A model generated the notes under the pieces. It was not told the DNA's origin, did no database searches, and saw only the letters and a list, made by a program, of their open reading frames with translations. Positions 184 through 56,776 of a DNA stretch of 56,776 nucleotides are shown in pieces; position 1 is the stretch's first letter, and every line of letters begins with the position of its first letter. The stretch lies in the sequence record NC_027378.1. One strand, given 5' to 3'. The position numbers and the translations under genes are program-made. The DNA comes from Escherichia phage Seurat.

Positions 184-741
184 ATGAACGGGGCAAGTCA
201 AGAGCAATATGATCGTGACTGGACGAATTACATCCAGTATGCAAATAGCTTGTCCGCTGAAGAGATGGCAATACGTGACAAAGTTGTTGCTGAGTACATG
301 TTCGACTACAATTGGACTAACGCTTGCATGAGATGCGGGTTCAATGCTATGTTTGCACAGGAGCTTGGCCAACGCTTTGCCACGGACTGTTATGTTCGAT
401 GGAAGCTCAAGGAGATTGAAAGATCCCGTGTTCAACGTACTTCTGAGCAAGCTAACATTGAAGCAGACCTTGAGCGTCAGCATATCATTGAAGCATTAAA
501 ACGTGAAGCTCATTATACAGGACCGGGATCTTCTCAAGCTGCTAGAGTCGCCGCATTGGGCAAGCTTGCACAAATTTATGATTTGGATGCTCCCAAGAAG
601 GCTAAGATTGATGTTACTAACAGAGGTGGCGTAATGATAGTCCCTGCTGTAGCAAATATTGACGAATGGGAAAAAACTGCATCCGAGTCTCAACAACGAC
701 TAGTTAAAGAGACTGAAGATGGAGCTAAACCGACAACCTGA
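184..741 (+). CDS. terminase small subunit (putative)
   Basis: 185-aa ORF immediately upstream of and overlapping the large terminase; RBS AAGGGGG before the ATG; call is positional. Confidence 0.45.
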   Translation: MNGASQEQYDRDWTNYIQYANSLSAEEMAIRDKVVAEYMFDYNWTNACMRCGFNAMFAQELGQRFATDCYVRWKLKEIERSRVQRTSEQANIEADLERQHIIEALKREAHYTGPGSSQAARVAALGKLAQIYDLDAPKKAKIDVTNRGGVMIVPAVANIDEWEKTASESQQRLVKETEDGAKPTT

Positions 742-2278
742 TAACATGCCGCGAGTCGTCTGGAAACCACATCCAGGTTCACAGACACTCGCTCTATCCT
801 GCCCCGCTGATATTATCCTATACCACGGAACTCGCGGTCCTGGAAAAACGGACTGCCAGCTTATGCGTTTCCGTAAGAATGTTGGTGTAGGGTACGGTAA
901 ATTTTGGAAGGGTATTATATTCGACCGTGAATATAAAAACCTTGATGACCTTGTAACTAAATCCCAGCGTTGGTTTCCTGAATTTAAAGACGGGGCTAAA
1001 TTCCTTAGTTCTAAGTCTGATTATAAATGGGTTTGGCCTACTGGTGAAGAGCTACTGTTCCGCGTTGCTTGTAAAGAAAAGGATTACTGGTCTTATCACG
1101 GTCACGAATACCCATTTATCGGATGGAACGAATTGACAAAATATCCGGACGGGCGTTTGTTTGAAGCTATGATGTCCTGTAACCGTTCATCTTTCCTACC
1201 AGAAGATAACCCAATTATCAATCCAGATGGTACGGTTACATATTTACCGGATATCCCTCTTGAAGTGTTTGCTACCAGTAACCCGTTCGGTGCGGGGCAT
1301 AACTGGGTTAAGAAACGCTTCATTGACGCTGCACCGATGGGTAAAATACTCAGGAAGACTACGCGAGTGTTTAACCCGAGGACGCAGAAAGACGAAGATG
1401 TGGTTACGACGCAATGCCATATCTTTGGTTCGTACCGTGAAAACAAAAACCTAAGTCCAAAATATATTGCAGAACTTATGTCTATCACAGACCCGAACAA
1501 GCGTGCTGCATGGTTGGGCGGGAGCTGGGATATTACATCCGGTGGTATGTTCGATGATCTGTGGCGTAGCACTGTTCACAAAGTACGACCATTCCCGATT
1601 CCAGCGAGTTGGAAGATTACACGTTCTTTCGACTGGGGTTCTTCAAAACCGTTCTCTGTCGGTTGGTGGGCTATTAGTGATGGTTCGGATGTTGTGCGTG
1701 AAGATGGCACTACATTCTCCACGGTCCGCGGTGACCTGTTTAGGATTAACGAATGGTATGGGACCAACGGTAAAACAAACGAAGGTCTACATTTGCTGGA
1801 CTCAGAAATTGCAAGCGGTATACTGGAGCGGGAATTGGCCTGGGGTATACACGATCGTGTAGTTCCTGGTCCTGCGGATAACTCCATTTGGGATCTGGAG
1901 AACAATAACTCCACCGCTGCAACAATGGCGAAGAAAATTCGTCTTAACGGGAAGTTATACAACGGTATACATTGGAAGCGCAGTGATAAGTCTGCTGGGT
2001 CACGTAAACGAGGCTGGCAGAAAATGCGTGAGTTCCTTAAAGCTGCACTGCGGGAAGATGCGAACGGTAAACCTTTGCCCGGTCCGCGCGAGAATCCGGC
2101 AATGTACATTTTTGATAACTGCAACTATTTCTTTGAGCTGGTTCCAAGTCTACCTCGCGATGAAGTAGATCAGGACGACGTTGATACGGAATGTGAAGAC
2201 CATATGGGTGATGAAGTTCGTTATATGGTTCTGGATCAAGCTGTTTATACAGGTGTTGGCAAAACTATCGGTATTTAA
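719..2278 (+). CDS. terminase large subunit
   Basis: 519 aa; Walker A-like HGTRGPGKTD near the N-terminus; acidic nuclease-like C-terminal half; followed by the portal gene. Confidence 0.8.
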   Translation: MELNRQPDNMPRVVWKPHPGSQTLALSCPADIILYHGTRGPGKTDCQLMRFRKNVGVGYGKFWKGIIFDREYKNLDDLVTKSQRWFPEFKDGAKFLSSKSDYKWVWPTGEELLFRVACKEKDYWSYHGHEYPFIGWNELTKYPDGRLFEAMMSCNRSSFLPEDNPIINPDGTVTYLPDIPLEVFATSNPFGAGHNWVKKRFIDAAPMGKILRKTTRVFNPRTQKDEDVVTTQCHIFGSYRENKNLSPKYIAELMSITDPNKRAAWLGGSWDITSGGMFDDLWRSTVHKVRPFPIPASWKITRSFDWGSSKPFSVGWWAISDGSDVVREDGTTFSTVRGDLFRINEWYGTNGKTNEGLHLLDSEIASGILERELAWGIHDRVVPGPADNSIWDLENNNSTAATMAKKIRLNGKLYNGIHWKRSDKSAGSRKRGWQKMREFLKAALREDANGKPLPGPRENPAMYIFDNCNYFFELVPSLPRDEVDQDDVDTECEDHMGDEVRYMVLDQAVYTGVGKTIGI

Positions 2279-2289
2279 CTGGAGGGTAT

Positions 2290-3786
2290 ATGGGTATTGA
2301 TGCAACTCACCCGCTATACGACAAGTGGAAGAATGCATGGATTAAGTGCAACGACTGCTATGAGGGTGAAGATAAAATTAAGGAAGAAGGTGTTAAATAT
2401 CTACCGCCTTTAGCTTCCATGATTATTGATGGGATGAATAATCCTAATGATTTGGGCTTTCAACGTTGGCTCGCTTATCGTCTGCGTGCTAACTTCCCTG
2501 ACGATTATTCAAGTGCTGTTACAAACAATTTAGGTCTGCTGCACCAGAAGCCGCCTACAATCCAGCTTCCTCCTGAAATGGAGTACATGCGGGATCTGTG
2601 TACTGCGGACGGTGAAGACATTATTGCTCTGCTACGTCGCATCAACGAAATGCAGTTAAAAAATGGGCGTCTGGGCCTGCTACTGGACTTGCCTAAAGGT
2701 GAGGATGTAAATAACAGACCTTATATTAGCGTTTATGACGCTTTATCCATTATCAACTGGGATGATGGTAAAGATGAATTGGGCAATATCAACTTGAACA
2801 TGGTTGTTCTGGATGAAAGTGGTCCTGTACGTGTCAATCAGTTTGACTGGAAAGAAGAGAAGCGTTACCGCGTTCTACAATTAGGTCCAATGGACACAGA
2901 TGAAGTTGCAGGTGGGGCGATCTACTCCCAACATCTGTTTATTAACAATACCAATTATGATGAAGGGCAAATGATTGCTCCTTATTATAAAGGTAACACG
3001 CTGGACGAAATACCTTTCCAGTTTGTCAATACAACAGATATTACCCCAGCACCGGAAGCGCCGCCATTGTTGGGTCTTGCTAACATTTGTCTAAGCATGT
3101 ACCGAAGTGACGCGGATTACCGCCAAAGCTTGCATATGCAGGGTCAGGACACTTTAGTCGTTGTTGGTGGTACTGGGGAGAATGGGGATAAAGCCCCTCA
3201 ACGCATCGGCCCTGGCGCTGTCATTAACGTTGCTATTGGTGGTGACGCTAAATATGTAGGTGTTAGCGGTGACGGTTTGTCCGAGCAACGTCTCGCACTG
3301 GCAGCGGATAAGCAGGAAGCCCAAATTAAAGCCGGGCAAATGGTAAACAATACCAAGAGTACGCAGGAATCGGGCGAAGCCATGAAAACGCGTATTGCTG
3401 CGCGTACAGCTAGTCTGATTCGAATTGCGTATACTGGTGCGGCTGGTCTGGAAAACTTGCTGAAGGTTTGCGCTAAGTGGATGGGCGCTGATCCCGAGAA
3501 AGTTGTGGTTAAGCCTAATCTTGAATTCACCAAGAGCATGTTTAACGGTCAGGACTTTGTTCAAATTATTACTGCACGCAACCTTAAGGCTCCGATTAGC
3601 TTGCAGTCTATTCATGGTTGGCTTGTTGATCAGGGCTTAACCACACTAAGCTTTGAAGAAGAAATGGCAATTCTTGAAGAAGAGCTTAAGAAGTGGCCTT
3701 TGCCCGATGATGCTAAAGCTGATTTAAACGCAGAGCAGCAAGTAAGCAAAGATCCTAAGGAAGACGACGCTTCCGATAAAGAATAG
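2290..3786 (+). CDS. portal protein (putative)
   Basis: 498 aa directly after terminase; RBS GGAGGG; acidic C-terminus; size and position typical of portal. Confidence 0.65.
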   Translation: MGIDATHPLYDKWKNAWIKCNDCYEGEDKIKEEGVKYLPPLASMIIDGMNNPNDLGFQRWLAYRLRANFPDDYSSAVTNNLGLLHQKPPTIQLPPEMEYMRDLCTADGEDIIALLRRINEMQLKNGRLGLLLDLPKGEDVNNRPYISVYDALSIINWDDGKDELGNINLNMVVLDESGPVRVNQFDWKEEKRYRVLQLGPMDTDEVAGGAIYSQHLFINNTNYDEGQMIAPYYKGNTLDEIPFQFVNTTDITPAPEAPPLLGLANICLSMYRSDADYRQSLHMQGQDTLVVVGGTGENGDKAPQRIGPGAVINVAIGGDAKYVGVSGDGLSEQRLALAADKQEAQIKAGQMVNNTKSTQESGEAMKTRIAARTASLIRIAYTGAAGLENLLKVCAKWMGADPEKVVVKPNLEFTKSMFNGQDFVQIITARNLKAPISLQSIHGWLVDQGLTTLSFEEEMAILEEELKKWPLPDDAKADLNAEQQVSKDPKEDDASDKE

Positions 3787-3881
3787 TTGCAACTTCCAAG
3801 TTGATTGGTTTATATTAACGAACACGGGGCTGGGACGGCTCAGCCCCAAAAACGTCACACGGGTGACAACGGAGATAAGAA

Positions 3882-4754
3882 ATGAAAAAGAGTTCTGTAG
3901 CTATTAGTGTTGGTATGGCTTTAATTAATCCACGCGCTCGCGGTGAAGGTGATGTGGAACTGGAATACGAATATGCATCTGCGGAAGAGATCCCGGCAGA
4001 GTTTGCAACTCTTTACGCAGAGCAGGGCGGTAAATACGTTCTTGCAAAAGTTAAAGGTGTAGCCCCTGCTGATAGCGTTCGTCGTCTGGAAAGTGCATTG
4101 GCAAAAGAACGTAACGACCATCGTCAGGTGAAGCAACAGATTAGCGCACTTGGGCGTCCGGTTGAAGAAGTCCTTGCGGACCTTGATCGTATCCCTCAAC
4201 TAGAAGCTGCCGCTAACGGTAAAGGTACTCCAGAAGACATCGAAAAGATGGTTAAAGCCCGTCTTGCTCCGCTTGAGCGTCAATTGCAAACTGTAGCAGC
4301 TGAACGCGATTCCGTTAAGCAGGAAATTGAAGGCTACCGCACTCGCGAAACTAAAGCGAAGATTAAAGACGCAGTTATTGCTGCTGCATCCGGCGCTAAG
4401 CTGCGTCCGTCTGCTATCGAAGATGCGGTGACTTATGCACAGTTGCAAATGACCGTCGACGAGAACGGCAATGTGGTTACGAAAGATGGGGCGGGTGTAA
4501 CTCCATACCTAACCCCGGCGGATTGGCTTAACGAGATTCTCCCGAAACGTCCTCACTGGGTTGAGGGTTCTGCTGGTGGCGGTGCATCTGGTCCGGGCGC
4601 TGGCGGTCATCACGGTGAAGACCCATACAGTCACGACGGTTGGAACATCTCTAAGCAGATGAATCTCTGGAAAACTAATCAATCTTTAGCTAAACGCTTA
4701 GCTGAAAAGAATGGCGTAGATCCGCTGAAGCCTGTACGTCCTGCTAAGAAATAA
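3882..4754 (+). CDS. scaffolding protein (putative)
   Basis: 290 aa, charged helical coiled-coil-like sequence between portal and capsid genes. Confidence 0.5.
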   Translation: MKKSSVAISVGMALINPRARGEGDVELEYEYASAEEIPAEFATLYAEQGGKYVLAKVKGVAPADSVRRLESALAKERNDHRQVKQQISALGRPVEEVLADLDRIPQLEAAANGKGTPEDIEKMVKARLAPLERQLQTVAAERDSVKQEIEGYRTRETKAKIKDAVIAAASGAKLRPSAIEDAVTYAQLQMTVDENGNVVTKDGAGVTPYLTPADWLNEILPKRPHWVEGSAGGGASGPGAGGHHGEDPYSHDGWNISKQMNLWKTNQSLAKRLAEKNGVDPLKPVRPAKK

Positions 4755-14928: not shown

Positions 14929-15337
14929 GTTGCCGGGCTGGCAGACACGTTTATTAACCACAGTAAAGGAGTTGTCATCGACTCCTTTTTCTTGGGGTGA
15001 AAATGATTGCTGCACCTTCGCGGCTAAATGTGTTGATGCGCAATACGGCACAAATATCTACGAACAAGTTGCTGGAAAATATAGTACCGAGCTTGGAAGT
15101 AAAAAGTTCACTATTGAAAGAGTTGGAACCGCTTACCTTCCATTGTTATTGGATACTTACCTCAGCGAACGAGTTGACAAGAACTATGCGCAAAGAGGCG
15201 ATGTGGTTACATTTGAGGGAGCATTGGGCTTAACTGCTGGCATATTATGGACTGGATATGTATGGGCTATGGGTCCGAACGGTGTGGAAACATTCCCGCT
15301 TAATAAGATCAAAATTACGGATATTTGGAGGGTCTAA
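14903..15337 (+). CDS. tail assembly protein, gpK-like (possible NlpC/P60-type Cys peptidase)
   Basis: Reset to the ATG at 14903 with RBS GGGGGAG; WGENDCCTFAAKC Cys motif. Confidence 0.45.
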   Translation: MRQGFPMSKLPGWQTRLLTTVKELSSTPFSWGENDCCTFAAKCVDAQYGTNIYEQVAGKYSTELGSKKFTIERVGTAYLPLLLDTYLSERVDKNYAQRGDVVTFEGALGLTAGILWTGYVWAMGPNGVETFPLNKIKITDIWRV

Positions 15338-18300
15338 TGCCACCAGCAATAATTGGAGCAGCGATAGCTTTAGGTGCGTCAGCTGCTGCCGCGGCTAGTA
15401 TTATTTCGGCTACTACCGCTCTCGTTATCGGTATTGCTGCAACCGCGGCAGGTGCTCTTTTAACTAAGACACCAAATATGAACTTTGATGCTTACAAGGG
15501 GCAGCAAGAGCGTAAACAGGTTCTGCGTGCAGCTACAGCGTCACGTTCTGTTGTATATGGCACGACTGTAGCGTCCGGACTATTAGCATTTGCGGAGGAA
15601 GAAGCTGGAGATCAAGATGAAGGTGAATGGATGCATCTTGTTGTCGTTCTTGCCAGTCATAAATTGGAAGGTATTGAAACGATTTGGTTGGGTGATGACG
15701 GAATTGATTGGTTTGGTGAAAACGCTACTTGGGAGTTTCATAACGACCGTCAGACTGTTGACCCATTCATGTTAAAACATTGTCCTTCCTGGAAGGAGGA
15801 TATGATTGGCAAGGGTATTGCATGGCTACGTTTAAGCTTAAAGTTTGATGCTGAAAAATTCCCATCCGGTTTGCCAAACGTCAAGGTGTTGAAAAAGGGA
15901 CGTAGAATTTATGACCCACGTTCCGGTCAAACTGTCTTTAGCGATAACGCCGCTCTTGTTATTCTTGATTATTTCCGCACGTATTTAAAGCGCAAGGACG
16001 AGAATATTAACTGGGACCAATTCAAGGAAGCTGCTAACATCTGCGATGAGTTTGTTACTAACGCAGATAACACTACGGAAAGACGCTATCGCATTAACGG
16101 TGAGTTTGAAGTGGATGAAGCACCTGCCAAAATCCTTGATGCTATGCTTGAAGCTTGCGGCGGGGAGCTTACCTATATTGGCGGCAAGCATGGTCTGTTA
16201 GTTGGTGCTTATTACGGCCCAGCTACCATGACTTTGGATGAAAGCTGCATTGCTGGGGATATTAAAATAATCCCTGAGACGTCTTATAAAGAGCGTACCA
16301 ATACCATTACAGGTACATTCGTCGACCCGAAGCAAACATACGCTGAAGCAGATTTCCCTCCAGTTGTGGTTAAGGAATGGGTGGAAAAAGATGGCGGTGA
16401 AATAACGCAAGACATGGATTTCCGCTTTGTTACAAGTGAATATCAAGCTCAACGTCTTGCTAATATTATTTTACGTCGTAAGCGTGTTGGTCGAACAATT
16501 GAAGTTCCGTGTAACATGAAGGGGTATAAATTCCGCCCAGGCATGTATGTCAACGTAACCATTTCAAACATCGAAATGAAAAACGTTGAGATGCGCGTTA
16601 CTAAATGGTCATTCGATCTTAAAGGTGGGATTAATCTTGTCCTTCGTCAAGACTTCCTGGAAATGTGGGACGACGCTATTGGTAAACCAATGGAGCGCCC
16701 GGATCTGGTAGACCTTCCGTCTGGTGCTATTGCTCAACCGCAAAACCTTCAGTATCAGGTATTGCAGATTAGCGATGTTGTGCAGGGTGTTTTAACGTGG
16801 AGCAATATTGGGCAGGTAGCATATAACCGCGTAGCCGTGCGACAGGGAGGTACAACGGTTTGGACCGCACAAGTCCCTGGCCAAAACGTTCGCGTTACTG
16901 GGTTGCTGCGGGGCGCGTATACAGCGCATGTTCAAGCGGTAGCTTATAGCGGGGCAATATCGCCTGAAGCATATCTGGAATTTAATATTCAGGCTCCGCC
17001 GCCACCAACATCTATTGAAGTACAACAGGGTTACTTTGCTATAAGCCTAATCCCTAAATCTGCGGACCTTGCAAACGTTAGCACGCAGTATGATTTCTGG
17101 ACTTCCGGTGAAACAAGATTGTCATCTGTGTCTACAGACGTTGTTGAGCGTGAAGCAACTCGTAAAGGTATAGGCACAACCTGGACTTCGGAAGGTTTGA
17201 AGAATGACCACACTTATTACTGGTATGTCCGCACCATTAACGCTTTCGGATCATCTGCATTTGTAGAAGTAGCTGCATTGTGCTTTACAACAGCTACAGA
17301 TTTGATGCCACAAATTGATTCTGAATTCAAGAAGACGGAGACTTACAAAGAGCTTACTACTGAGATCACAGGTGTTAAAGACGGTGTTACTCAGCTTAGC
17401 CAAACTGTAGTGGAAACTGAACAGCGTTTAAGTCAAAGCGTTAGCAATGTTCAACAAAGCGTTATTACTTTGGACGGTGTTGTTCAGGATCAGGGCGTTA
17501 CCATTAACGAACAAGGACAGCTTATCGACGCACAGGGTAAGTTGATTGACACTCAAGGTAAGACTATTGAAACGGTTAGCGCGACCGTGCAGGAGACAAG
17601 TAAAGCAGTTGTAGATCTGGAAGGTAATGTTAACGCTCAATGGGGCGCTAAGGTACAGGTTGATAGTAAAGGACAAAAATACGTCGCTGGTATCCAGCTA
17701 GGTATGGAGGGTTCCGGTGGCGCTGTTCAGTCTTACTTTATGGTAAGTGCTAACAACTTTGCTATCTATAACCCGACAAACAGCGCCGCTGAATTAGCAT
17801 TTGCCGTTAAAAACGGTCAAGTGTTTATGAAGGCTACATTTATTGAAAATGGTACTATCGACAGTGCTAAGATAGCAAACCAAATTCAGTCAACAAACTA
17901 CGCTAACAATAGCGCGGGTTGGATGATTAACAAGAATGGTAGCGCTCAGTTTAACAACGTAACGATAAGAGGTACTGTATACGCTAACAACGGATCTTTC
18001 ACAGGCACAGTGAACGCAACAAGCGGTAAATTCAAGGGTACTGTGGAAGCTACCAGTTTTGTGGGTGATGTTGCGAATATGTGTGTCATTGCTGAGTCTG
18101 CAATACCAAACACACAAACTACAAGTTCAAGAACCTGGACAAAAACTTTCAAAGACTCATCTGGTTCAACATTATCTAAAGACTTTGTGTTGCTATTAAG
18201 TTATAGTTTAACTGCATATACATCAAAACAGGCGAGTCGTATAATTGTGACTGCTAACATAGGGGGGACATCAATTACAAGGAGGATTGAGCGAGCTGCT

Positions 18301-18459
18301 AATGGACCTGCGATGGATGTAACCATACCTTTAGCAGTGAAAGGAAAGACAGCGTCGCGCGTAACAATAAGCGTTAAGGAGGAGTATACGAACGTCTATG
18401 GGAGCTACTTGCGCCCGTCTGTAATATTAATGACTCGCGGAACTGGTAGTTGGTCGTAA
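15337..18459 (+). CDS. tail tip/host specificity protein, lambda gpJ-like
   Basis: Clear similarity to lambda J (YYWYVRTINAFGSSAFVEV vs lambda YYFYIRSVNTVGKSAFVEA; KYVAGIQLGMEG vs HYVAGIGLSMED); track start is TTG at 15325, reset to the ATG at 15337 with RBS GGAGGG. Confidence 0.85.
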   Translation: MPPAIIGAAIALGASAAAAASIISATTALVIGIAATAAGALLTKTPNMNFDAYKGQQERKQVLRAATASRSVVYGTTVASGLLAFAEEEAGDQDEGEWMHLVVVLASHKLEGIETIWLGDDGIDWFGENATWEFHNDRQTVDPFMLKHCPSWKEDMIGKGIAWLRLSLKFDAEKFPSGLPNVKVLKKGRRIYDPRSGQTVFSDNAALVILDYFRTYLKRKDENINWDQFKEAANICDEFVTNADNTTERRYRINGEFEVDEAPAKILDAMLEACGGELTYIGGKHGLLVGAYYGPATMTLDESCIAGDIKIIPETSYKERTNTITGTFVDPKQTYAEADFPPVVVKEWVEKDGGEITQDMDFRFVTSEYQAQRLANIILRRKRVGRTIEVPCNMKGYKFRPGMYVNVTISNIEMKNVEMRVTKWSFDLKGGINLVLRQDFLEMWDDAIGKPMERPDLVDLPSGAIAQPQNLQYQVLQISDVVQGVLTWSNIGQVAYNRVAVRQGGTTVWTAQVPGQNVRVTGLLRGAYTAHVQAVAYSGAISPEAYLEFNIQAPPPPTSIEVQQGYFAISLIPKSADLANVSTQYDFWTSGETRLSSVSTDVVEREATRKGIGTTWTSEGLKNDHTYYWYVRTINAFGSSAFVEVAALCFTTATDLMPQIDSEFKKTETYKELTTEITGVKDGVTQLSQTVVETEQRLSQSVSNVQQSVITLDGVVQDQGVTINEQGQLIDAQGKLIDTQGKTIETVSATVQETSKAVVDLEGNVNAQWGAKVQVDSKGQKYVAGIQLGMEGSGGAVQSYFMVSANNFAIYNPTNSAAELAFAVKNGQVFMKATFIENGTIDSAKIANQIQSTNYANNSAGWMINKNGSAQFNNVTIRGTVYANNGSFTGTVNATSGKFKGTVEATSFVGDVANMCVIAESAIPNTQTTSSRTWTKTFKDSSGSTLSKDFVLLLSYSLTAYTSKQASRIIVTANIGGTSITRRIERAANGPAMDVTIPLAVKGKTASRVTISVKEEYTNVYGSYLRPSVILMTRGTGSWS

Positions 18460-18466
18460 TAAATAA

Positions 18467-18494
18467 TTAACCCCTCAAACGAGGGGTTAATTTT
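18467..18494. terminator. bidirectional intrinsic terminator between J and the convergent lipoprotein gene
   Basis: TTAACCCCTC-aaac-GAGGGGTTAA perfect 10-bp stem with T-rich flanks on both strands. Confidence 0.6.
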
Positions 18495-18727
18495 CAATAA
18501 TCAATCACACAGTTTGAAGGTGAGCCAATTCGTCGGTATTCGTGATCAATTTCATGGCACCATTGCCCAGTCATTGGAAGCTTTTCGGTATTATAAATTA
18601 AAGAACCGTTACCATCGCGATCCAAAGGTTTTGGAATAACGCCGGAATTTGGTTTACCAGTATTTAAACCATTACCACATGCAGTGAGGGACAAACATAA
18701 TGCCAGCATAATTAGAGCGTGTTTCAT
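18494..18727 (-). CDS. small outer-membrane lipoprotein, candidate receptor-blocking superinfection exclusion protein (Cor/Llp-like)
   Basis: 77 aa; signal peptide MKHALIMLALCLSLTAC with lipobox LTAC; opposite strand between J and the side fibre; RBS AAAGGAG. Confidence 0.6.
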   Translation of the reverse strand: MKHALIMLALCLSLTACGNGLNTGKPNSGVIPKPLDRDGNGSLIYNTEKLPMTGQWCHEIDHEYRRIGSPSNCVIDY

Positions 18728-18791: not shown

Positions 18792-18809
18792 ATAAATGTG
18801 GGAGATATT

Positions 18810-20618
18810 ATGGCAACTCGTTTACGTGGTACTTTAGTTGATGGTTTGAACAAGCCTATTATCAACGCTACAGTTGCGCTTTTAGCTAAAGGAAACAGTC
18901 TTACCGTATTATCCGGCAGCGAAGCTATCTTTAAAACAAGTGCAACCGGAACTTATGATATTACAGTCCAGACAGGTTATTACAAGGTTATTATCGGTCC
19001 ACAGGGCGTAGAGCCATATAAAGCTGGTGAAATTGCTATTTACGCGGATAGTAAAGAAGGTACGCTGAATAACTATTTAACTACATGGGCACCGGAAGAA
19101 TTAACTCCGGAAGTTATTGCTCAGGTAAAAGATTTGGTTGCACAAGCAGAGACGGCTAAGAATGCTTCAGCTTCGTCTGCTACTAAATCCGAGCAAGAAC
19201 GCGTTAAAGCAGAAGCTGCTGCTAGAAAGGCAGAAGACACTGCTAATGGTATGAAGGCGTCTATTGGTCTTAGCAATGTTCCAAGACATGTAGCAGATAT
19301 TAGTGGAAACCCTTCTGAGTTCTTAGGGTTTATACGCATATTAAGGACAACTACTGTCGGTTATCCTTCAATTGCTTCTGGTGAAACAGTATTAGCTGGT
19401 TTTGTGTCACCGATGGATGGAACTCCAGGATATACTGGTGTATTTGTTGGAGATGTGACTGGGACTTTATATACTTACCGTTGGACTTCAGTTACTGGCG
19501 CTATATGGTGGAAACATGTAAAATCAGAAACAATAGACAGATATACACAATTATCCGATTCCACTACTATTTATAATGCGTCAAAGAGCGCTACCCTTGT
19601 CATAAAAGATACTAAAACTTGGGGAGCTTGGGACAATCAAAGCTCCAAATACATACCTCTGGCAATAGCACAGGGTGGCACTGGAGGGGTTACTGACGCG
19701 GACGCTCGTACAAACTTAAAGCTTGGCGCTAACGATACCCCGCAATTCAGAAACCTTAATCTTGTTACCGTAGCGGACACGGCGCAAGCCCCTTCCGGTA
19801 TTGTAAGCGGTTATTTAAATAATAGCTCTGGAGTTCAAAGATGCCGCTACCGCATATATTCTGAAATACGCGGTGACAATAAAGCGTGGTTAACCTTACA
19901 CCTTCAATCAGACACAGCAACAAATAAATATGCTGGTCTAAGCGTTGATGGTAATTTTCAAATCAATGGAAGTTTTATCGGTAACGCTTTAAGTCTTAGT
20001 GATGTCCCTACTTCTAAAGTAAATCTTCAAATTAATAGATTTGTTCAGAACACTGGTGAAACTGATGTGGTTAACCATGCAGGGACAGCTCAAATTTTTA
20101 TCACTGATAATAAAAATTGGGGAGCTTACGATAAAGAATCAAAGCGCCATATTCCTTTGCCCATTTCACAAGGAGGTACTGGAGCGGTTACTATTGCTGA
20201 TGCTAAAACCAATCTTCAAATTCCATCTGTAGGTGGGGGTGATTGGTTAACTTATAACGCCCCTCCTGGCGTGGAAGCTGGAAAGTATTATCCCGTTATT
20301 ATTGATATGGCGTATAGTTCTTTATATGCTTCCGGCGCTTTTATAGATATAAAAACAAAATCCGCCTCTGGCGATGATCCAATGAACTGCTGCACTTTTA
20401 ACGGTTTTATCCGATGTGGTGGTTGGAGCGATCGTAAAGACTTCGCAGGGGATTTTATTAGTAAGTTTCTTGGTATGCAACCAGAGCAGCCTGTAGAAGC
20501 ACGCGAGCATATTAGCCCGTGGCCACCCATGATTGATCAGGAAGTGCTGCAACCAAAGACCGCTCAAACGGTCCCTCAGAAACCGGAGCAGAAGGTGAAA
20601 CCAAATGACGAAGAATGA
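18810..20618 (+). CDS. side tail fibre / receptor-binding protein
   Basis: Track start is GTG at 18798, reset to the ATG at 18810 (RBS GGGAGA); two internal repeats (KTWGAWDNQSSKYIPLAIAQGGTGGVT... and NKNWGAYDKESKRHIPLPISQGGTGAVT...). Confidence 0.7.
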   Translation: MATRLRGTLVDGLNKPIINATVALLAKGNSLTVLSGSEAIFKTSATGTYDITVQTGYYKVIIGPQGVEPYKAGEIAIYADSKEGTLNNYLTTWAPEELTPEVIAQVKDLVAQAETAKNASASSATKSEQERVKAEAAARKAEDTANGMKASIGLSNVPRHVADISGNPSEFLGFIRILRTTTVGYPSIASGETVLAGFVSPMDGTPGYTGVFVGDVTGTLYTYRWTSVTGAIWWKHVKSETIDRYTQLSDSTTIYNASKSATLVIKDTKTWGAWDNQSSKYIPLAIAQGGTGGVTDADARTNLKLGANDTPQFRNLNLVTVADTAQAPSGIVSGYLNNSSGVQRCRYRIYSEIRGDNKAWLTLHLQSDTATNKYAGLSVDGNFQINGSFIGNALSLSDVPTSKVNLQINRFVQNTGETDVVNHAGTAQIFITDNKNWGAYDKESKRHIPLPISQGGTGAVTIADAKTNLQIPSVGGGDWLTYNAPPGVEAGKYYPVIIDMAYSSLYASGAFIDIKTKSASGDDPMNCCTFNGFIRCGGWSDRKDFAGDFISKFLGMQPEQPVEAREHISPWPPMIDQEVLQPKTAQTVPQKPEQKVKPNDEE

Positions 20619-20889
20619 AGGTATTGATAAAGTCGTTGAAGGGCTTTCTATTCGTGCTCATGTTATAGCAGACGAAGGTCATGATCAACTCACAATTATG
20701 AAATCTGCATTTAGTGATTTTAAGTCTCTTGGAAACTTAAGCGGGTTAATGACTGTGGTGTCGACCGGAAAATTAACCCAGCAGCAAATCAGTCTGGCTC
20801 AGCGTATTGCTGTTAAAGTTATTGCGGTACTTGGGATGATTGAAGCTGAAAAGCCCAGTTCCAAGCAGGATAACGAAAGCGACCTTTAA
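20605..20889 (+). CDS. hypothetical protein (possible fibre assembly factor)
   Basis: 94 aa; overlaps the fibre gene end. Confidence 0.35.
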   Translation: MTKNEGIDKVVEGLSIRAHVIADEGHDQLTIMKSAFSDFKSLGNLSGLMTVVSTGKLTQQQISLAQRIAVKVIAVLGMIEAEKPSSKQDNESDL

Positions 20890-20900
20890 GGAGGTCTACT

Positions 20901-21104
20901 ATGTGTGGTAATACTAACCGTTGCTGTCTAGGCAGTCCTGCAACACAAGCAGGTATACTTCAGGGGCAATTAGCTCAAGCGGCGTGTAATTGCAAAACTT
21001 TTCAACCAGTAGCTCCAACTCCTGTGTTTGTGAATGCTTTTGCACCGCCTGTTTTCAATACTTTTGGCGTATACCCATACGGTGCTTTCTTTCGTATATT
21101 CTAA
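20901..21104 (+). CDS. small Cys-rich protein of unknown function
   Basis: 67 aa; strong RBS AAGGAGG; MCGNTNRCCLGSP...CNCK then hydrophobic C-terminus; followed by a terminator. Confidence 0.45.
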   Translation: MCGNTNRCCLGSPATQAGILQGQLAQAACNCKTFQPVAPTPVFVNAFAPPVFNTFGVYPYGAFFRIF

Positions 21105-21111
21105 GAAGAGA

Positions 21112-21136
21112 AAAGGGGCAAACGCCCCTTTCTTTA
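21112..21136. terminator. bidirectional intrinsic terminator between convergent blocks
   Basis: AAAGGGGC-aaac-GCCCCTTT hairpin with T-rich flanks on both strands. Confidence 0.65.
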
Positions 21137-21415
21137 ACGCTTATGAAAAGCTGACAGGATTGCAAGTGTTACAGCACCCAATCCGACGACGGTAGCATAA
21201 GTGAGTTGGTGTTGAACTTTAACAAAGCCATAATAGGTGCTAGGGATGTCTACAATCCCAAACGCCATAGCAAAGCTGGTCCCAAGCAGTGCTACAGCAA
21301 GGGCGCGTAATAACGCCCTGCTCATTGCTGTAAAGCCCTTCTCATTACTATCTCCGGTCATTATAACAACAATGATTAGAAATAGCGAAACGACAACTAA
21401 TAGATATTCCATCAT
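21134..21415 (-). CDS. small membrane protein
   Basis: 93 aa with about three hydrophobic segments. Confidence 0.45.
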   Translation of the reverse strand: MMEYLLVVVSLFLIIVVIMTGDSNEKGFTAMSRALLRALAVALLGTSFAMAFGIVDIPSTYYGFVKVQHQLTYATVVGLGAVTLAILSAFHKR

Positions 21416-21618
21416 TTGCGTCTCCTGTACATGTATTGATCATACGCAGTCGCAATAATAGTGACTGGCCAGCAAACAAGTATACATAGAAGACTCACAA
21501 TCTTCTCCCAACGTTTCTTATGAGCTAATGCATAATCATAATTATTCCAACAAAAGAAATAAGTCATTGCCGCAATGATTGCACCAATTACAAAATACAT
21601 AACCACATATTCATTCAT
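21412..21618 (-). CDS. small membrane protein (2 TM)
   Basis: 68 aa, two hydrophobic helices, basic C-terminus RRRK. Confidence 0.45.
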   Translation of the reverse strand: MNEYVVMYFVIGAIIAAMTYFFCWNNYDYALAHKKRWEKIVSLLCILVCWPVTIIATAYDQYMYRRRK

Positions 21619-21806
21619 TTAGCAAACTCCCAAATTAGATTATAATTATTGCCCGCGGGTACATAGCGCCCTGGACGTGAGTTGAAGCTTTTCACTGAAA
21701 ATTCCAGCGTTCCAGCGCTATATAGTTGTACTTTTTGCCCGTCCCACGGTCCACCAATTAGCTTAAAAGTCTGTCTGTAACCTTTTGCTGCTCTAGCCAT
21801 ATTCAC
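21615..21806 (-). CDS. hypothetical protein
   Basis: 63 aa; overlapping start/stop with neighbours. Confidence 0.4.
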   Translation of the reverse strand: MNMARAAKGYRQTFKLIGGPWDGQKVQLYSAGTLEFSVKSFNSRPGRYVPAGNNYNLIWEFAK

Positions 21807-21842
21807 TCCTTAAAATACCCGCGCGAACGCGGGTATTATTTA

Positions 21843-22049
21843 TTACGCTTCCGGTGATTCCGGAGTTGGCTCATCTGGAACAACAATAACGTCAGCTAAA
21901 ACCTTCAACGCTTCTTGCTGCTCAGCGGTCATATTATTCCAGTAATAGACGTGAATGTAAACTACTGGTTTGTCACCATGTTGCCACGGTTCGCGACTTA
22001 CTGCATCCACACCTAAATCGCTTGCTACGCTCTTTTCTTTACCAGCCAT
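21843..22049 (-). CDS. hypothetical protein
   Basis: 68 aa, acidic C-terminus. Confidence 0.4.
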   Translation of the reverse strand: MAGKEKSVASDLGVDAVSREPWQHGDKPVVYIHVYYWNNMTAEQQEALKVLADVIVVPDEPTPESPEA

Positions 22050-22081
22050 GCTAATATACCCCTTTAAGGTTTTACACGCGG

Positions 22082-22375
22082 CTAGCCCCCAAAAGTACCC
22101 CTATGATCAAGGGTTCTAATGCGCTGCTCCAGCCAACGTGCGTTCTTTTCAAAATGTTTATTGGTACGCGCTGCTTTGCACGCATCAATAATACCTAACT
22201 CACATCCAAGCTGCGTTTGTCCCATCACGTAAGAATGAGTTAACATGCTGGATACAAGGTCTTCACATTGTAACTTAATAGGATGGTCTTGGCATAGTTT
22301 CTTTGCTGCATCTTTTAAATCCACAGCTTGGACACCAGGCGCTATCAGCAAAGTTACGAGTAATAAACGTTTCAT
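22082..22375 (-). CDS. secreted (periplasmic) Cys-containing protein
   Basis: 97 aa; signal peptide MKRLLLVTLLIAPGVQA with AxA cleavage motif; four Cys in the mature part. Confidence 0.5.
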   Translation of the reverse strand: MKRLLLVTLLIAPGVQAVDLKDAAKKLCQDHPIKLQCEDLVSSMLTHSYVMGQTQLGCELGIIDACKAARTNKHFEKNARWLEQRIRTLDHRGTFGG

Positions 22376-22659
22376 TATGCTTTCCCTTTACGACATAAGG
22401 CTTGAAGTTCAAGAAGCGCATCAATGTCTTCCTGTGGAGTTACACCAACGTGAATTGGATATTTAGCGCGACATTCGTAGCCAACTTCAACAGTGTGGTT
22501 AATGTAGCCGTAAACACATCCACCAATAACAGTGAAGATAAGCGCAACAATCATTGCAAGGTACTTACCTTGTTTGCGTTCTTCATTTTGTTTATTAAGC
22601 TGACGGTTAAGTTCCACCGCGTCGATTTTACCTTTATTGTAATCGTCTACTAAGCTCAT
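22375..22659 (-). CDS. single-pass membrane protein
   Basis: Reset to the ATG at 22659 (RBS GAGGAG); central TM helix YLAMIVALIFTVIGGCVYGYI. Confidence 0.45.
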   Translation of the reverse strand: MSLVDDYNKGKIDAVELNRQLNKQNEERKQGKYLAMIVALIFTVIGGCVYGYINHTVEVGYECRAKYPIHVGVTPQEDIDALLELQALCRKGKA

Positions 22660-22684: not shown

Positions 22685-22713
22685 TATATTAAAACAGACC
22701 CGCGAAGGGTCTG
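22685..22713 (-). terminator. intrinsic terminator after the DNA polymerase gene
   Basis: CAGACCC-ttcgc-GGGTCTG followed by TTTTAATAT on the minus strand. Confidence 0.55.
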
Positions 22714-22723
22714 CAAGTAGAAT

Positions 22724-49908: not shown

Positions 49909-50094
49909 ATGTTAATCTTAATCATGATGGTCGTTGCGGTAGTGGGCCCACTGGTGGCACTGATTGTAACCGAAGTATGTGATGCTAAATGGGATCGCAA
50001 ATACAACGAAGTAATGGAACAGCGGTATGCAGAGCGCCGCGTAAGGAAATGGGAACAGCGCTATAACGCACACAGCGACACGCTAGCGAGCTAA
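49909..50094 (+). CDS. small membrane protein
   Basis: 61 aa; N-terminal TM helix; RBS GGAGG. Confidence 0.45.
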   Translation: MLILIMMVVAVVGPLVALIVTEVCDAKWDRKYNEVMEQRYAERRVRKWEQRYNAHSDTLAS

Positions 50095-50135
50095 TGTACA
50101 TAGGTAATGGTAATGCATTAGCTTGGGCGAAACAG

Positions 50136-50175
50136 GCGCACAGCGTCGCGCACAGCTCGCACAGCGCACACAGAC
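50136..50175. repeat. short tandem GC-rich repeat (GCGCACAGC units)
   Basis: GCGCACAGCGTC / GCGCACAGCTC / GCACAGCGCACACAG in a roughly 400-bp non-coding stretch. Confidence 0.55.
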
Positions 50176-50492
50176 CCACGCAGGCCCAGCCGCGCAACCC
50201 GACCCATCCTTTTCCAGGTACTTGGAGCGCTGGGGCGTGCCCTGTCCATCCTGATAGTAAGTCCACGCCTAAATCTCACCAATCACTTTACTATCCACCT
50301 ACATCCATGACCCCACCTACCTTCTTTTTGAATATATTGCGCTCATCCTTTCTAAATATATGGATTTTGGTAGTAAATTCTGAGTCGTCAACGTATAATT
50401 CGTCTTGTAGCTGCTCCATAGCTACCATCTTTAAGCGGATGCAACCAATTTCTATCAATTCTTACCAGTTTTAGAGCATCAAGGAGGTATTT

Positions 50493-52054: not shown

Positions 52055-52279
52055 ATGCGCTTACTCATGGTGTTAGGCGTTATACTTGCCGCTTTCGTTG
52101 TATTTGCAATTGTAGACTCTAAAGAAATGGAGCGGCAAAACTGCCAACGTACTGGTAACAGCCGGGATGATATTATTTGGCAATATATTTACGATGCAAA
52201 AGGTAATGTTATGTCAATGTATCCTCAGGTTATTACTGAGTATGAATATAAATGCAATGACCGTAACAGGTGGAGATAA
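52055..52279 (+). CDS. small membrane protein
   Basis: 74 aa; N-terminal TM helix. Confidence 0.45.
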   Translation: MRLLMVLGVILAAFVVFAIVDSKEMERQNCQRTGNSRDDIIWQYIYDAKGNVMSMYPQVITEYEYKCNDRNRWR

Positions 52280-54510: not shown

Positions 54511-54696
54511 ATGACCAAACTATACGCCGGATTGTTTTTATTTGCGACGTTAATGTTCGCTGGGCTTTATACCTATACAGTAGTCGAACAACCTTCCACG
54601 GTTATCCGAATCTTTGCAAGTACAGGGCTTTGCATCTGTCTTATTCTATTTGTTTTATGCATTGTTATTATCCAAGACCAAAGGAAAGTTAAATGA
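54511..54696 (+). CDS. holin-like small membrane protein (2 TM)
   Basis: 61 aa, two TM helices, basic C-terminus QDQRKVK; RBS AAGAGGGG. Confidence 0.5.
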   Translation: MTKLYAGLFLFATLMFAGLYTYTVVEQPSTVIRIFASTGLCICLILFVLCIVIIQDQRKVK

Positions 54697-55500: not shown

Positions 55501-55938
55501 ATGGCACTTCAACCTCGTGGTATTCGTAATAACAATCCAGGCAATATTCGCTGGGGTGATAATTGGCAGGGCTTAGTTCCTGCTGATAAGCGAACCGATA
55601 AATCTTTTGCTCAATTCACGCAACCGATTTACGGCATTCGTGCGCTAGCGAAAATCCTGACAAACTACACCAAACGTGAAGGCTTACCCAATGTGGGTAA
55701 GAAAAACATCGACACTGTACGTGAAATTATCGCTCGCTGGGCACCGCCTAACGAAAACGATACGGAAGCGTATATTCGCTCTGTTGCCAAAGCAATTGGT
55801 GTTCAACCTAACGATCCAATTAATGTCTTCGACAAGGCAATTATGTCAGGATTGGTGAAAGCAATCATTCGTCATGAAAATGGCATGATGCCCTATACCG
55901 ACGACGTAATTAACCGCGCTATTGCAATGGTACTTTAA
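55501..55938 (+). CDS. hypothetical protein, positional candidate endolysin
   Basis: Start reset to the ATG at 55501 (RBS GGAGG); lies between holin-like and spanin genes; no catalytic motif recognised. Confidence 0.35.
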   Translation: MALQPRGIRNNNPGNIRWGDNWQGLVPADKRTDKSFAQFTQPIYGIRALAKILTNYTKREGLPNVGKKNIDTVREIIARWAPPNENDTEAYIRSVAKAIGVQPNDPINVFDKAIMSGLVKAIIRHENGMMPYTDDVINRAIAMVL

Positions 55939-55974
55939 CTGACGGGGCGTTAGCCCCTTTTATTTGGAGGGAAC

Positions 55975-56319
55975 ATGTTCAATTCACCCAACGAACATTG
56001 GGCAGTTCTAGCGGGGTTTGCGTTTATCTCCCTCATTGGGGGAGCTCTCGGTTATGTCATGCGTACAATAGACGCTGGTAAGAAAGTACGGGCAAGCATT
56101 GCATTTCTTGAAGGCTTATCCGCCGCTTTCTTTGGCGTTATAATGTATGCGATCTACAGGGAGTTTAACATCAGCCTTTGGTTCGCTTTTGGCCTTGCTG
56201 GCCTATTTGCTTGGGCAGGTTCACGTGCTACGCTAAAAGCCCTAACGTCGCTTATAGCTTCACGGACAGGGATCAAACTCGATTCAGGGGACTGCAAACA
56301 TGAAAACGATTCTAAATAA
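55975..56319 (+). CDS. membrane protein (3 TM), holin-like
   Basis: 114 aa; three hydrophobic helices; RBS GGAGGG; just upstream of the spanins. Confidence 0.45.
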   Translation: MFNSPNEHWAVLAGFAFISLIGGALGYVMRTIDAGKKVRASIAFLEGLSAAFFGVIMYAIYREFNISLWFAFGLAGLFAWAGSRATLKALTSLIASRTGIKLDSGDCKHENDSK

Positions 56320-56776
56320 CTTCTTCGGTTTTATAAAAACTAAACCGCGTCTGTTTATCGAGTATTTGATGATCGGCGCGGTTGTGTTTTTATGCGGGGT
56401 GGCTGCATACTTGTGGTCACAGAACGAGCTTAGCAAAACTAATTTAAATCATGCTGAGCAAAGACTAACTGTTGTAGAACAGGACAATGCAAAGCTGGGC
56501 GAAGCTGTTGTATTTCTTGCATCCCAACGGGAGAAGGATACTGAATCCTATCGAAAATTGGCTTCAGCAATTGAAAGTGAGCAACATAACCACAGGTTGC
56601 TTCAGGACAAATTAAAAGCACTGGAGAAAAGCAATGCCGACGTCAAAGCTTATCTTAATGAGCGTGTTCCTGATGATTTGCGCAGGCTGCTCGACGGAGA
56701 TACAACCTCCACCACCGCCGCAGATAGTGAAGATAAAACTTCCGGCTCATCTGTTGGTAGAATGTCGGGAAGTTGA
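56300..56776 (+). CDS. i-spanin (Rz-like)
   Basis: N-terminal TM helix then charged coiled-coil periplasmic domain; embedded +1 frame lipoprotein ORF. Confidence 0.65.
   Translation: MKTILNNFFGFIKTKPRLFIEYLMIGAVVFLCGVAAYLWSQNELSKTNLNHAEQRLTVVEQDNAKLGEAVVFLASQREKDTESYRKLASAIESEQHNHRLLQDKLKALEKSNADVKAYLNERVPDDLRRLLDGDTTSTTAADSEDKTSGSSVGRMSGS
56634..56776 (+). CDS. o-spanin (Rz1-like lipoprotein), 3'-truncated at the window end
   Basis: +1 frame inside the i-spanin gene; MPTSKLILMSVFLMICAGCST signal/lipobox-like start then PPPPPQ; no stop before the window end. Confidence 0.55.
   Translation, partial: MPTSKLILMSVFLMICAGCSTEIQPPPPPQIVKIKLPAHLLVECREV

Follow-up and report, generated by a model that had tools for sequence, protein, structure and literature searches.

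A mosaic island of six small genes, four with predicted envelope-directed products, at the junction of the two gene blocks of Seuratvirus genomes

The window analysed here, the complete 56,776-nucleotide (nt) stretch of Escherichia phage Seurat (NC_027378.1), is a near-complete Seuratvirus genome of the CAjan/KurtStettler type (subfamily Queuovirinae). At about 21 kb the sign of the GC skew flips, a leftward block of replication and DNA-modification genes meets the rightward structural block, and a 1.5-kb island of small genes occupies the junction. An earlier note, made from the letters of the window, had placed here six small open reading frames (ORFs) on the minus strand at 21134-22659, including a single-pass membrane protein, two soluble proteins and two proteins with several membrane segments. 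All six are present, and we designate them A to F: A is the single-pass protein, C and D are the soluble ones, and E and F carry two and three membrane segments, respectively. The terminators that the note had seen on both sides were also recovered, as hairpins 3' of the DNA polymerase gene and at the convergent end of the block. The island has the following features (aa, amino acids; pI, isoelectric point):

Gene A, 22375..22659, minus strand: 94 aa; one hydrophobic segment (residues 31-54); phrog_26834
Gene B, 22082..22375, minus strand: 97 aa; Sec-type signal peptide; start overlaps the A stop (TAATG)
Gene C, 21843..22049, minus strand: 68 aa; pI 4.5; no hydrophobic segment
Gene D, 21615..21800, minus strand: 61 aa; pI 10.1; basic and soluble
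Gene E, 21412..21618, minus strand: 68 aa; two membrane helices; overlaps D and F (ATGA)
Gene F, 21134..21415, minus strand: 93 aa; three membrane helices; phrog_15669
Hairpin 3' of the DNA polymerase stop, 22694..22714, minus strand: UUCG loop and U-run; -13.6 kcal/mol, z -4.3
Hairpin between C and D, 21814..21837, unstranded: perfect 10-bp stem, UUCG loop; -15.8 kcal/mol; overlooked in the earlier note
Bidirectional terminator, 21111..21132, unstranded: -14.6/-16.2 kcal/mol; common to the end of F (leftward) and the end of gene H (rightward late block)

The island and its flanks are 93-97% identical at the nucleotide level to more than 30 Seuratvirus genomes, among them CAjan, slur01, Greed and the BASEL phages KurtStettler and GottfriedDienst. 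The KurtStettler counterparts likewise follow the polymerase gene directly and close a long leftward block, in which DpdA, FolE, QueC/D/E and replication proteins are also encoded.

Since all six ORFs are short and labelled hypothetical in every database, they could in principle be chance frames or annotation noise, an explanation to which we give almost no credit. Pairwise ratios of nonsynonymous to synonymous substitution rates (dN/dS), computed against nine relatives, are mostly 0.04-0.4 in each of the six genes and thus well below 1 (polymerase, 0.02; the exceptions are comparisons with very few substitutions or a truncated copy), with values of 0.04-0.24 for A. Ribosome-binding sites are present for the six ORFs, starts and stops overlap, and the frames are kept down to 30-40% identity across host genera. 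Judged by these substitution patterns, the six ORFs are real genes under purifying selection. Between host genera, dN reaches 0.41 for A and 0.20 for B versus 0.064 for the polymerase; divergence so much faster than that of the polymerase is a pattern typical of host- or competitor-facing proteins.

The description of the six genes as all translationally packed holds for parts of the run: one nucleotide is shared by A and B (TAATG) and four each by D/E and E/F (ATGA), but gaps of 32 nt and 42 nt separate B from C and C from D. The hairpin between C and D splits the island into A-B-C and D-E-F. All three hairpins are labelled terminators in the annotation of relatives (SA80RD and SA126VB for the two internal ones), and the two internal hairpins (22694-22714 and 21814-21837) have C(UUCG)G-type tetraloops. 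The one at the polymerase end is likely to be an attenuator, a terminator or a stabiliser of RNA 3' ends at the entry of the island. A promoter scan of the region returned sigma-70-type consensus matches at chance level (5 found vs 5.1 expected), and the island is probably without a strong sigma-70-type promoter of its own; taken together with the short intergenic gaps, the chance-level matches make read-through transcription from the polymerase gene probable. A weak promoter-like sequence (TTGCAG-17 nt-TTTAAT), read by eye and not called by the scan, may overlap the polymerase-end hairpin. Rfam and tRNA scans of the region gave nothing above noise.

Gene A is predicted from its sequence to encode a one-pass inner-membrane protein with a cytoplasmic N-terminus and an external C-terminus (N-in/C-out), because basic residues precede the helix and the C-terminal Cys pair (C62/C88; C63/C89 in the alignment) is conserved. 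Among sequences that are 37-50% identical, the first 19 residues are nearly fixed (M1 S2 D5 Y7 N8 G10 K11 I12 E16 L17 N18 R19), and the motif MS..D.YN.GKI...ELNR of this cytoplasmic N-terminus is invariant. A second near-fixed set (N, H, C, KY, Q, A, L, LC and G) is found C-terminally, where the periplasmic tail is ~40 residues long; the sequence of the membrane helix is variable. In an N-in/C-out orientation, two near-fixed ends would imply functional surfaces on both sides of the membrane.

Gene B had been described as encoding a secreted protein with four Cys and an A-x-A signal peptide. The secretion signal, the length of 97 aa and the four Cys are all there, but the cleavage motif is V-x-A and not strictly A-x-A. 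The signal peptide, MKRLLLVTLLIAPGVQA|VD (ending APGVQA|VD, with cleavage at VQA|VD), combines a basic n-region, a hydrophobic core and a V-x-A|V site with an invariant A17, and both the signal peptide and the four Cys are invariant in relatives. The mature protein is predicted to be ~80 aa long, helical and periplasmic; AlphaFold2 (AF2) models it as three helices with low confidence (predicted local distance difference test score, pLDDT, 64). The invariance of the Cys pair of A and of the four Cys of B at only 30-50% identity is as expected for disulfide-bonded periplasmic domains.

The product of gene C is acidic, soluble and presumably cytoplasmic, and carries the conserved motif PW.HGDKPV.YI..YYW. 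The basic, cytoplasmic protein D contains the motif LIGGP(W/F/Y)DG, and its gene is, by its synonymous divergence (dS), a recombination hotspot with divergent alleles: dS is 1.9-2.2 against SA80RD, SA126VB and L013, versus 0.02-0.5 in flanking genes, and in the comparison with SA80RD the value of 1.9 for D stands against 0.016-0.03 for B and F. This jump relative to the neighbours points to recombination breakpoints around the central hairpin. E, which has a basic C-terminus ending in RRRK and an ambiguous predicted orientation in the membrane, is the least conserved member of the island.

Signal-peptide and topology prediction, proposed in the earlier note as a check, thus marks four of the six products as envelope-directed by sequence features. 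When a crude hydropathy and signal-peptide scan was applied to the small (<=120 aa) called proteins of the whole window, 7 of 35 looked envelope-targeted, and four of these seven fall within the six-gene run. The enrichment is modest but real, with a hypergeometric estimate of ~0.01 before correction for a window chosen post hoc. Three more small plus-strand ORFs with predicted membrane segments or a signal-like N-terminus lie in the rightward early region, at 50094-50474, 52055-52279 and 54511-54696.

The content of the island varies among relatives, in which the stop of A is usually overlapped by the following gene, one for an exported product that in most lineages is B. Compared with the window, the following differences were found:

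STP-SP5 and L021: no E
yong3 (a Hafnia phage): no C; a 98-aa three-helix protein in place of E
L014: no B (no gene in the slot after A, 4044-4118) and no E; an extra 149-aa gene
L020: B replaced by a 101-aa lipoprotein unrelated to B (712-1017, plus strand; lipobox VSG|C), whose start overlaps the A stop
L019: B homologue with a non-ATG start in the slot after A (3785-4124), missed by gene callers; E divergent

B is present in L013, L019, L021, STP-SP5 and yong3. The translational coupling, the common compartment and the non-homologous replacement in L020 suggest that A works with an exported partner. An extra 63-aa basic protein (motif MPK.NE.Y...DRKRFKKI.DDYRWL), absent from the window, is encoded between the polymerase gene and A in Seuratvirus-like phages of hosts other than E. 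coli (L004:4897-5088, minus strand; L014:3498-3689; L019 and L021:3246-3437).

Across the shared terminator, the rightward late block ends in two further small genes:

Gene G, 20605-20889, plus strand: 94 aa; end of the rightward late block
Gene H, 20901-21104, plus strand: 67 aa; Cys-rich; last gene of the rightward late block

In Nonagvirus JenP1, a member of the sister genus, both the island as a whole and H are missing, and the G homologue directly faces the end of the polymerase gene. In VogelGryff a single deletion, reaching from a Gly-rich gene into E, removes genes for a MazG-like and a 176-aa protein together with G, H, F and most of E; this phage forms plaques on K-12 (PMC8594841). 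On the genomes compared, the island is a Seuratvirus-specific, dispensable accessory island. It had been proposed to be an envelope-modifying module, and the envelope-targeting features of four of the six products, kept in relatives, agree with the first half of this description. The idea of a single module is not supported, in view of the absence from the sister genus, the partial deletion in VogelGryff and the mosaic content; the gene combinations resolve into at least three separately evolving units: A with its exported partner (then C), D, and F, sometimes with E. A search of 5,426 complete E. coli genomes left the island unmatched, and its relatives were found only on phage-sized contigs (40-62 kb).

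F has the widest reach that we could follow in other genera. The positive-inside rule predicts an N-out/C-in topology for this protein, which ends in HKR and which AF2 models with helices at residues 2-21, 28-51 and 64-90 (pLDDT 75). The identity of the window F to 25 other aligned sequences ranges over 37-91%; the three-helix pattern is conserved throughout, the loop YYG.VK between helices 2 and 3 is invariant, and conservation is highest in YYG.VK.Q.QLTYA, from this loop into helix 3. Homologues occur in 52 phage records, including Nonanavirus 9NA (gp16), Sashavirus (Sasha), Bas82 and Eiauvirus eiAU (gp12), and among the matches listed F is the last gene of its block, 12-250 nt from an opposite-strand G homologue, in surrounding genomes that differ. 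In other genera it is preceded by genes for small exported or anchored Cys-pair proteins (9NA gp17, eiAU gp13).

This conserved position raises the question of whether F, possibly along with E, works for the late G/H cassette as a membrane factor for the tail-fibre-distal products (the Gly-rich, His-rich, 176-aa, G and H proteins), its place in the leftward block being incidental. The tail-to-tail arrangement at 12-250 nt recurs in Seuratvirus, in 9NA- and Sasha-like phages, in Bas82 and in eiAU despite their differing surroundings, and the single VogelGryff deletion took away F along with G, H and the genes for the 176-aa and MazG-like proteins. G homologues, however, are found in 160 phage records, far more widely than F, and G occurs without F in more than 100 of the records, including Nonagvirus and T1-like phages. 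Conversely, KS_A3 and KS_S4 retain F but seem to have lost G and the greater part of H (similarity begins inside H, of which only the 22 C-terminal residues match, and neither phage is among the listed G matches), so that the linkage of F to G/H is strong but not obligatory. The window genome has also kept F despite the loss of much of the cassette, and simple co-inheritance across the shared terminator could explain the linkage. A service role of F for the cassette seems rather improbable to us.

The cassette itself, present in several genera, encodes a Gly-rich/CCC protein (~233 aa), a MazG-like protein rich in His, the 176-aa protein, G (84-98 aa) and the Cys-rich H (54-67 aa), and this His-, Cys- and Gly-rich composition hints at metal binding. 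Its loci are 20605-21104 (plus strand) in the window, L014:5526-7502, L007:4312-5293, L008:3740-5594 and L009:3813-5860; in Seuratvirus and eiAU its place is after the tail-fibre genes, in 9NA and Bas82 after the terminase gene. The MazG-like 'pyrophosphatase' gene and the Gly-rich gene are absent from the window genome. Its 606-aa tail-fibre ORF (18798-20618, plus strand) looks like a deletion fusion with a junction near 20441: slur01 matches it at 99.9% up to 20441 and then skips ~3.2 kb, and of the conserved 176-aa gene no more than the last 63 codons are left, as an in-frame fusion.

Each of the six proteins matches one function-unknown PHROG end to end. Scans of the six proteins, of G and H and of the 77-aa lipoprotein described below against PHROGs, Pfam, PADLOC and NCBIfam produced no more than function-unknown PHROGs and sub-threshold noise, PDB sequence searches with A and B nothing meaningful, and a phmmer search with B 0 matches at E<=10. 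Large protein searches returned 3 clusters for B (out of 5.8 billion proteins), 32 for F and 13 for D, and an exhaustive profile search for A yielded 6 representatives out of 1.84 billion; none of these matches is functionally named. Two candidate relationships were discarded: P0041 has only the first 29 residues of A in common with it and looks like a frameshifted or chimeric call, and the similarity of B (residues 1-56) to phrog_1256, 'valyl tRNA synthetase modifier' (E=8e-4), spans the signal peptide. Foldseek comparison of the B model (pLDDT 64) with PDB gave no match below E=3.9, which is weak evidence given the low confidence of the model. For the F model, the sole significant match in BFVD was a member of its own family, the only holin listed appearing at E=1.8. 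Our literature search found no paper dealing with the six genes.

What, then, might the island do? Its structural description is much more secure than any exclusion function: the envelope targeting of four products is supported by their sequence features, and superinfection exclusion, which the earlier note had put forward, is an analogy. The explanation that we favour overall, to which we assign a probability of roughly 0.4 with exclusion-type protection included, runs as follows. Transcription running on from the polymerase gene would express the island in the early to middle phase of infection, at transcript levels that the hairpins either reduce or stabilise, and the island's products would alter the inner membrane and periplasm of the infected cell to the benefit of the phage. 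A would act together with its exported partner to protect the infected cell at a receptor-independent step in the periplasm or at the inner membrane. Like T4 Imm/Sp or HK97 gp15, to which it is unrelated, the pair might stop the DNA of phages that arrive later from entering, or prevent such phages from causing damage in the periplasm; F and E would act separately from it.

The receptor independence of this proposal has a basis in natural variants. KurtStettler uses LamB as receptor and VogelGryff uses LptD (PMC8594841), yet A and B are ~98% identical between the two, which argues against receptor-specific exclusion. In small siphoviruses, receptor-masking exclusion genes lie directly after the J-like gene (PMC8594841). 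The window has its own gene directly after the J-like tail-tip gene (15325-18459):

77-aa lipoprotein gene, 18494-18727, minus strand: lipobox LTA|C; phrog_12984 'lipoprotein'

Its product is 83% identical to KurtStettler bas22_0021 and is the positional Cor/Llp equivalent of the window genome.

Several observations weigh against exclusion as the role of A and its partner. None of the searches described above found homology tying any of the six proteins to exclusion or to another function. In a direct comparison by BLASTP and profile hidden Markov models of A, B, D and F with T4 Sp, Imm, Imm.1 and 61.4, the bit scores against Imm and Imm.1 were <=6 even in this four-sequence database, and the B profile reached only 4.7 bits against Sp; the PHROG scan left the six proteins unmatched to any exclusion- or immunity-annotated family. 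A physical complex of A and B is suggested solely by the gene overlap and the shared compartment, and A exists without B in L014. The timing of expression is likewise deduced from position only. Nonagviruses are viable without the island, and so is VogelGryff without F and most of E. Finally, the invariant cytoplasmic head of A would be unexpected in a purely periplasmic blocker and hints at a partner in the cytoplasm, in favour of a signalling or lysis-timing role.

Lysis genes proper lie elsewhere. The cluster contains no endolysin, in keeping with what the note had said, and the full lysis cassette is located at 55501-56773, wrapping to 2-160: it encodes the endolysin, a 114-aa holin, an i-spanin that runs to 56773 and an embedded o-spanin that continues at 2-160. 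The window is accordingly a circular permutation of the genome. This location led us to reject the island as a lysis cassette, and a spanin (Rz/Rz1) identity was discarded as well, given that B has no lipobox, that the tail of A is only ~40 aa long and that genuine spanin genes are found at 56300-56773 and 2-160.

A, B and C could nevertheless form a lysis-timing device that reacts to signals in the periplasm by tuning or delaying the 114-aa holin of the phage itself. Their architecture copies the compartment layout of T4 T-RI-RIII, in which one protein crosses the membrane once, with its head in the cytoplasm and a disulfide-bonded domain in the periplasm, and is joined by two small proteins, a helical one in the periplasm and another in the cytoplasm; RI, like B, is helical and 97 aa long. 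The invariant head of A would fit a cytoplasmic ligand, and the scattering of the rI, rIII and t genes in T4 also counts in favour of the idea. To our knowledge, however, lysis inhibition is not known in this phage group. The PHROG scan gave no match to lysis-inhibition families at E<=0.01 (RI and RIII were not compared pairwise), the island lies 33 kb from the lysis cassette, and A is retained in lineages without B (L014) or without C (yong3). We regard a lysis-timing function as unlikely, if deserving of consideration.

The same conserved surfaces of A on both sides of the membrane would also suit host take-over or anti-defence, in which the membrane proteins bind host envelope machinery (divisome proteins, envelope-stress sensors or membrane proteases) or membrane-anchored defence systems, so as to keep the cell productive or to avoid abortive infection. 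The one-pass SPO1 protein gp56, which binds FtsL, provides a model, and A has the same topology as gp56, FtsL and FtsB. Fast divergence between phages of E. coli, Salmonella and Hafnia and the position in a presumed early-to-mid block are consistent with such a role. It is at odds with the near-invariance of A and B among E. coli Seuratviruses isolated on varied strains, and PADLOC and the other family scans gave no matches; we see this, too, as a minor candidate.

One further possibility takes the invariant 20-residue head of A as its starting point. A and an interchangeable exported partner (B or the lipoprotein), possibly with C, might constitute a trans-membrane relay, and so a new family controlling exclusion or lysis timing. 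The periplasmic pair may sense or bind incoming phage components or envelope damage, and the head of A may signal to a cytoplasmic target. The conservation of this head suggests a better fit to a relay or a lysis-timing device than to purely periplasmic exclusion; as a specific proposal, the relay is nonetheless doubtful.

Small membrane and periplasmic proteins of virulent phages are the usual hiding place of exclusion, lysis-timing and host take-over functions, and few of their families have been characterised. The six genes were already deposited as hypothetical proteins, and small envelope-directed accessory proteins of virulent phages are a familiar kind. The new elements are the limits of the island, its confinement to a single genus and its mosaic composition, together with the pattern of A plus an exported partner and the conserved position of the F family. 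At present this amounts to a description of orphan accessory genes and not to the discovery of a mechanism. The island does offer compact and tractable candidates, with natural variants (VogelGryff, L014, L020), an island-free sister genus, a K-12 host and BASEL model phages. Should it prove true that A and its partner block DNA entry or set lysis timing, a new family would join a short list, and the behaviour of Seuratviruses in phage cocktails could be affected.

Among known systems, the closest likeness for the putative exclusion-type protection is offered by two T4 proteins, Imm with 83 aa in the inner membrane and Sp/Spackle with 97 aa in the periplasm. Like the predicted A and B, they are small, are made early by a virulent phage and are directed to these two compartments. 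B equals Sp in length and shares a cleavable signal peptide and Cys residues with it, whereas Imm has two membrane helices and A one. In the T4 genome (AF158101; L018 9374-11501), the membrane-protein genes imm.1 and imm come directly 3' of DNA polymerase gene 43 and on its strand, a location that corresponds to that of the Seuratvirus island, with which they have no sequence similarity. The DNA-entry blockers HK97 gp15 and the lactococcal Sie2009 type are one-pass inner-membrane proteins with the C-terminus outside that act after adsorption, and A shares this topology; they are prophage genes, in contrast to those of a virulent phage, and general searches found no relationship (no direct comparison was made). 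Cor (T1/phi80) and Llp (T5) are small envelope proteins by which virulent siphoviruses prevent re-infection, but A-F have no lipobox and the A/B alleles do not track the receptor. E and F resemble holins (lambda S, class I; phage 21 S, class II) in size, in their two to three helices and in a charged C-terminus, a trait that is not holin-specific; they lie outside a complete lysis cassette, however, and F and most of E are absent from the plaque-forming VogelGryff. The T4 holin T is much longer than A (218 vs 94 aa), and the window has a separate holin in its lysis cassette. The layout proposed for the relay, finally, has its counterparts in RseA/RseB and in T4 T-RI-RIII, where unrelated proteins are arranged across the inner membrane in the same way.

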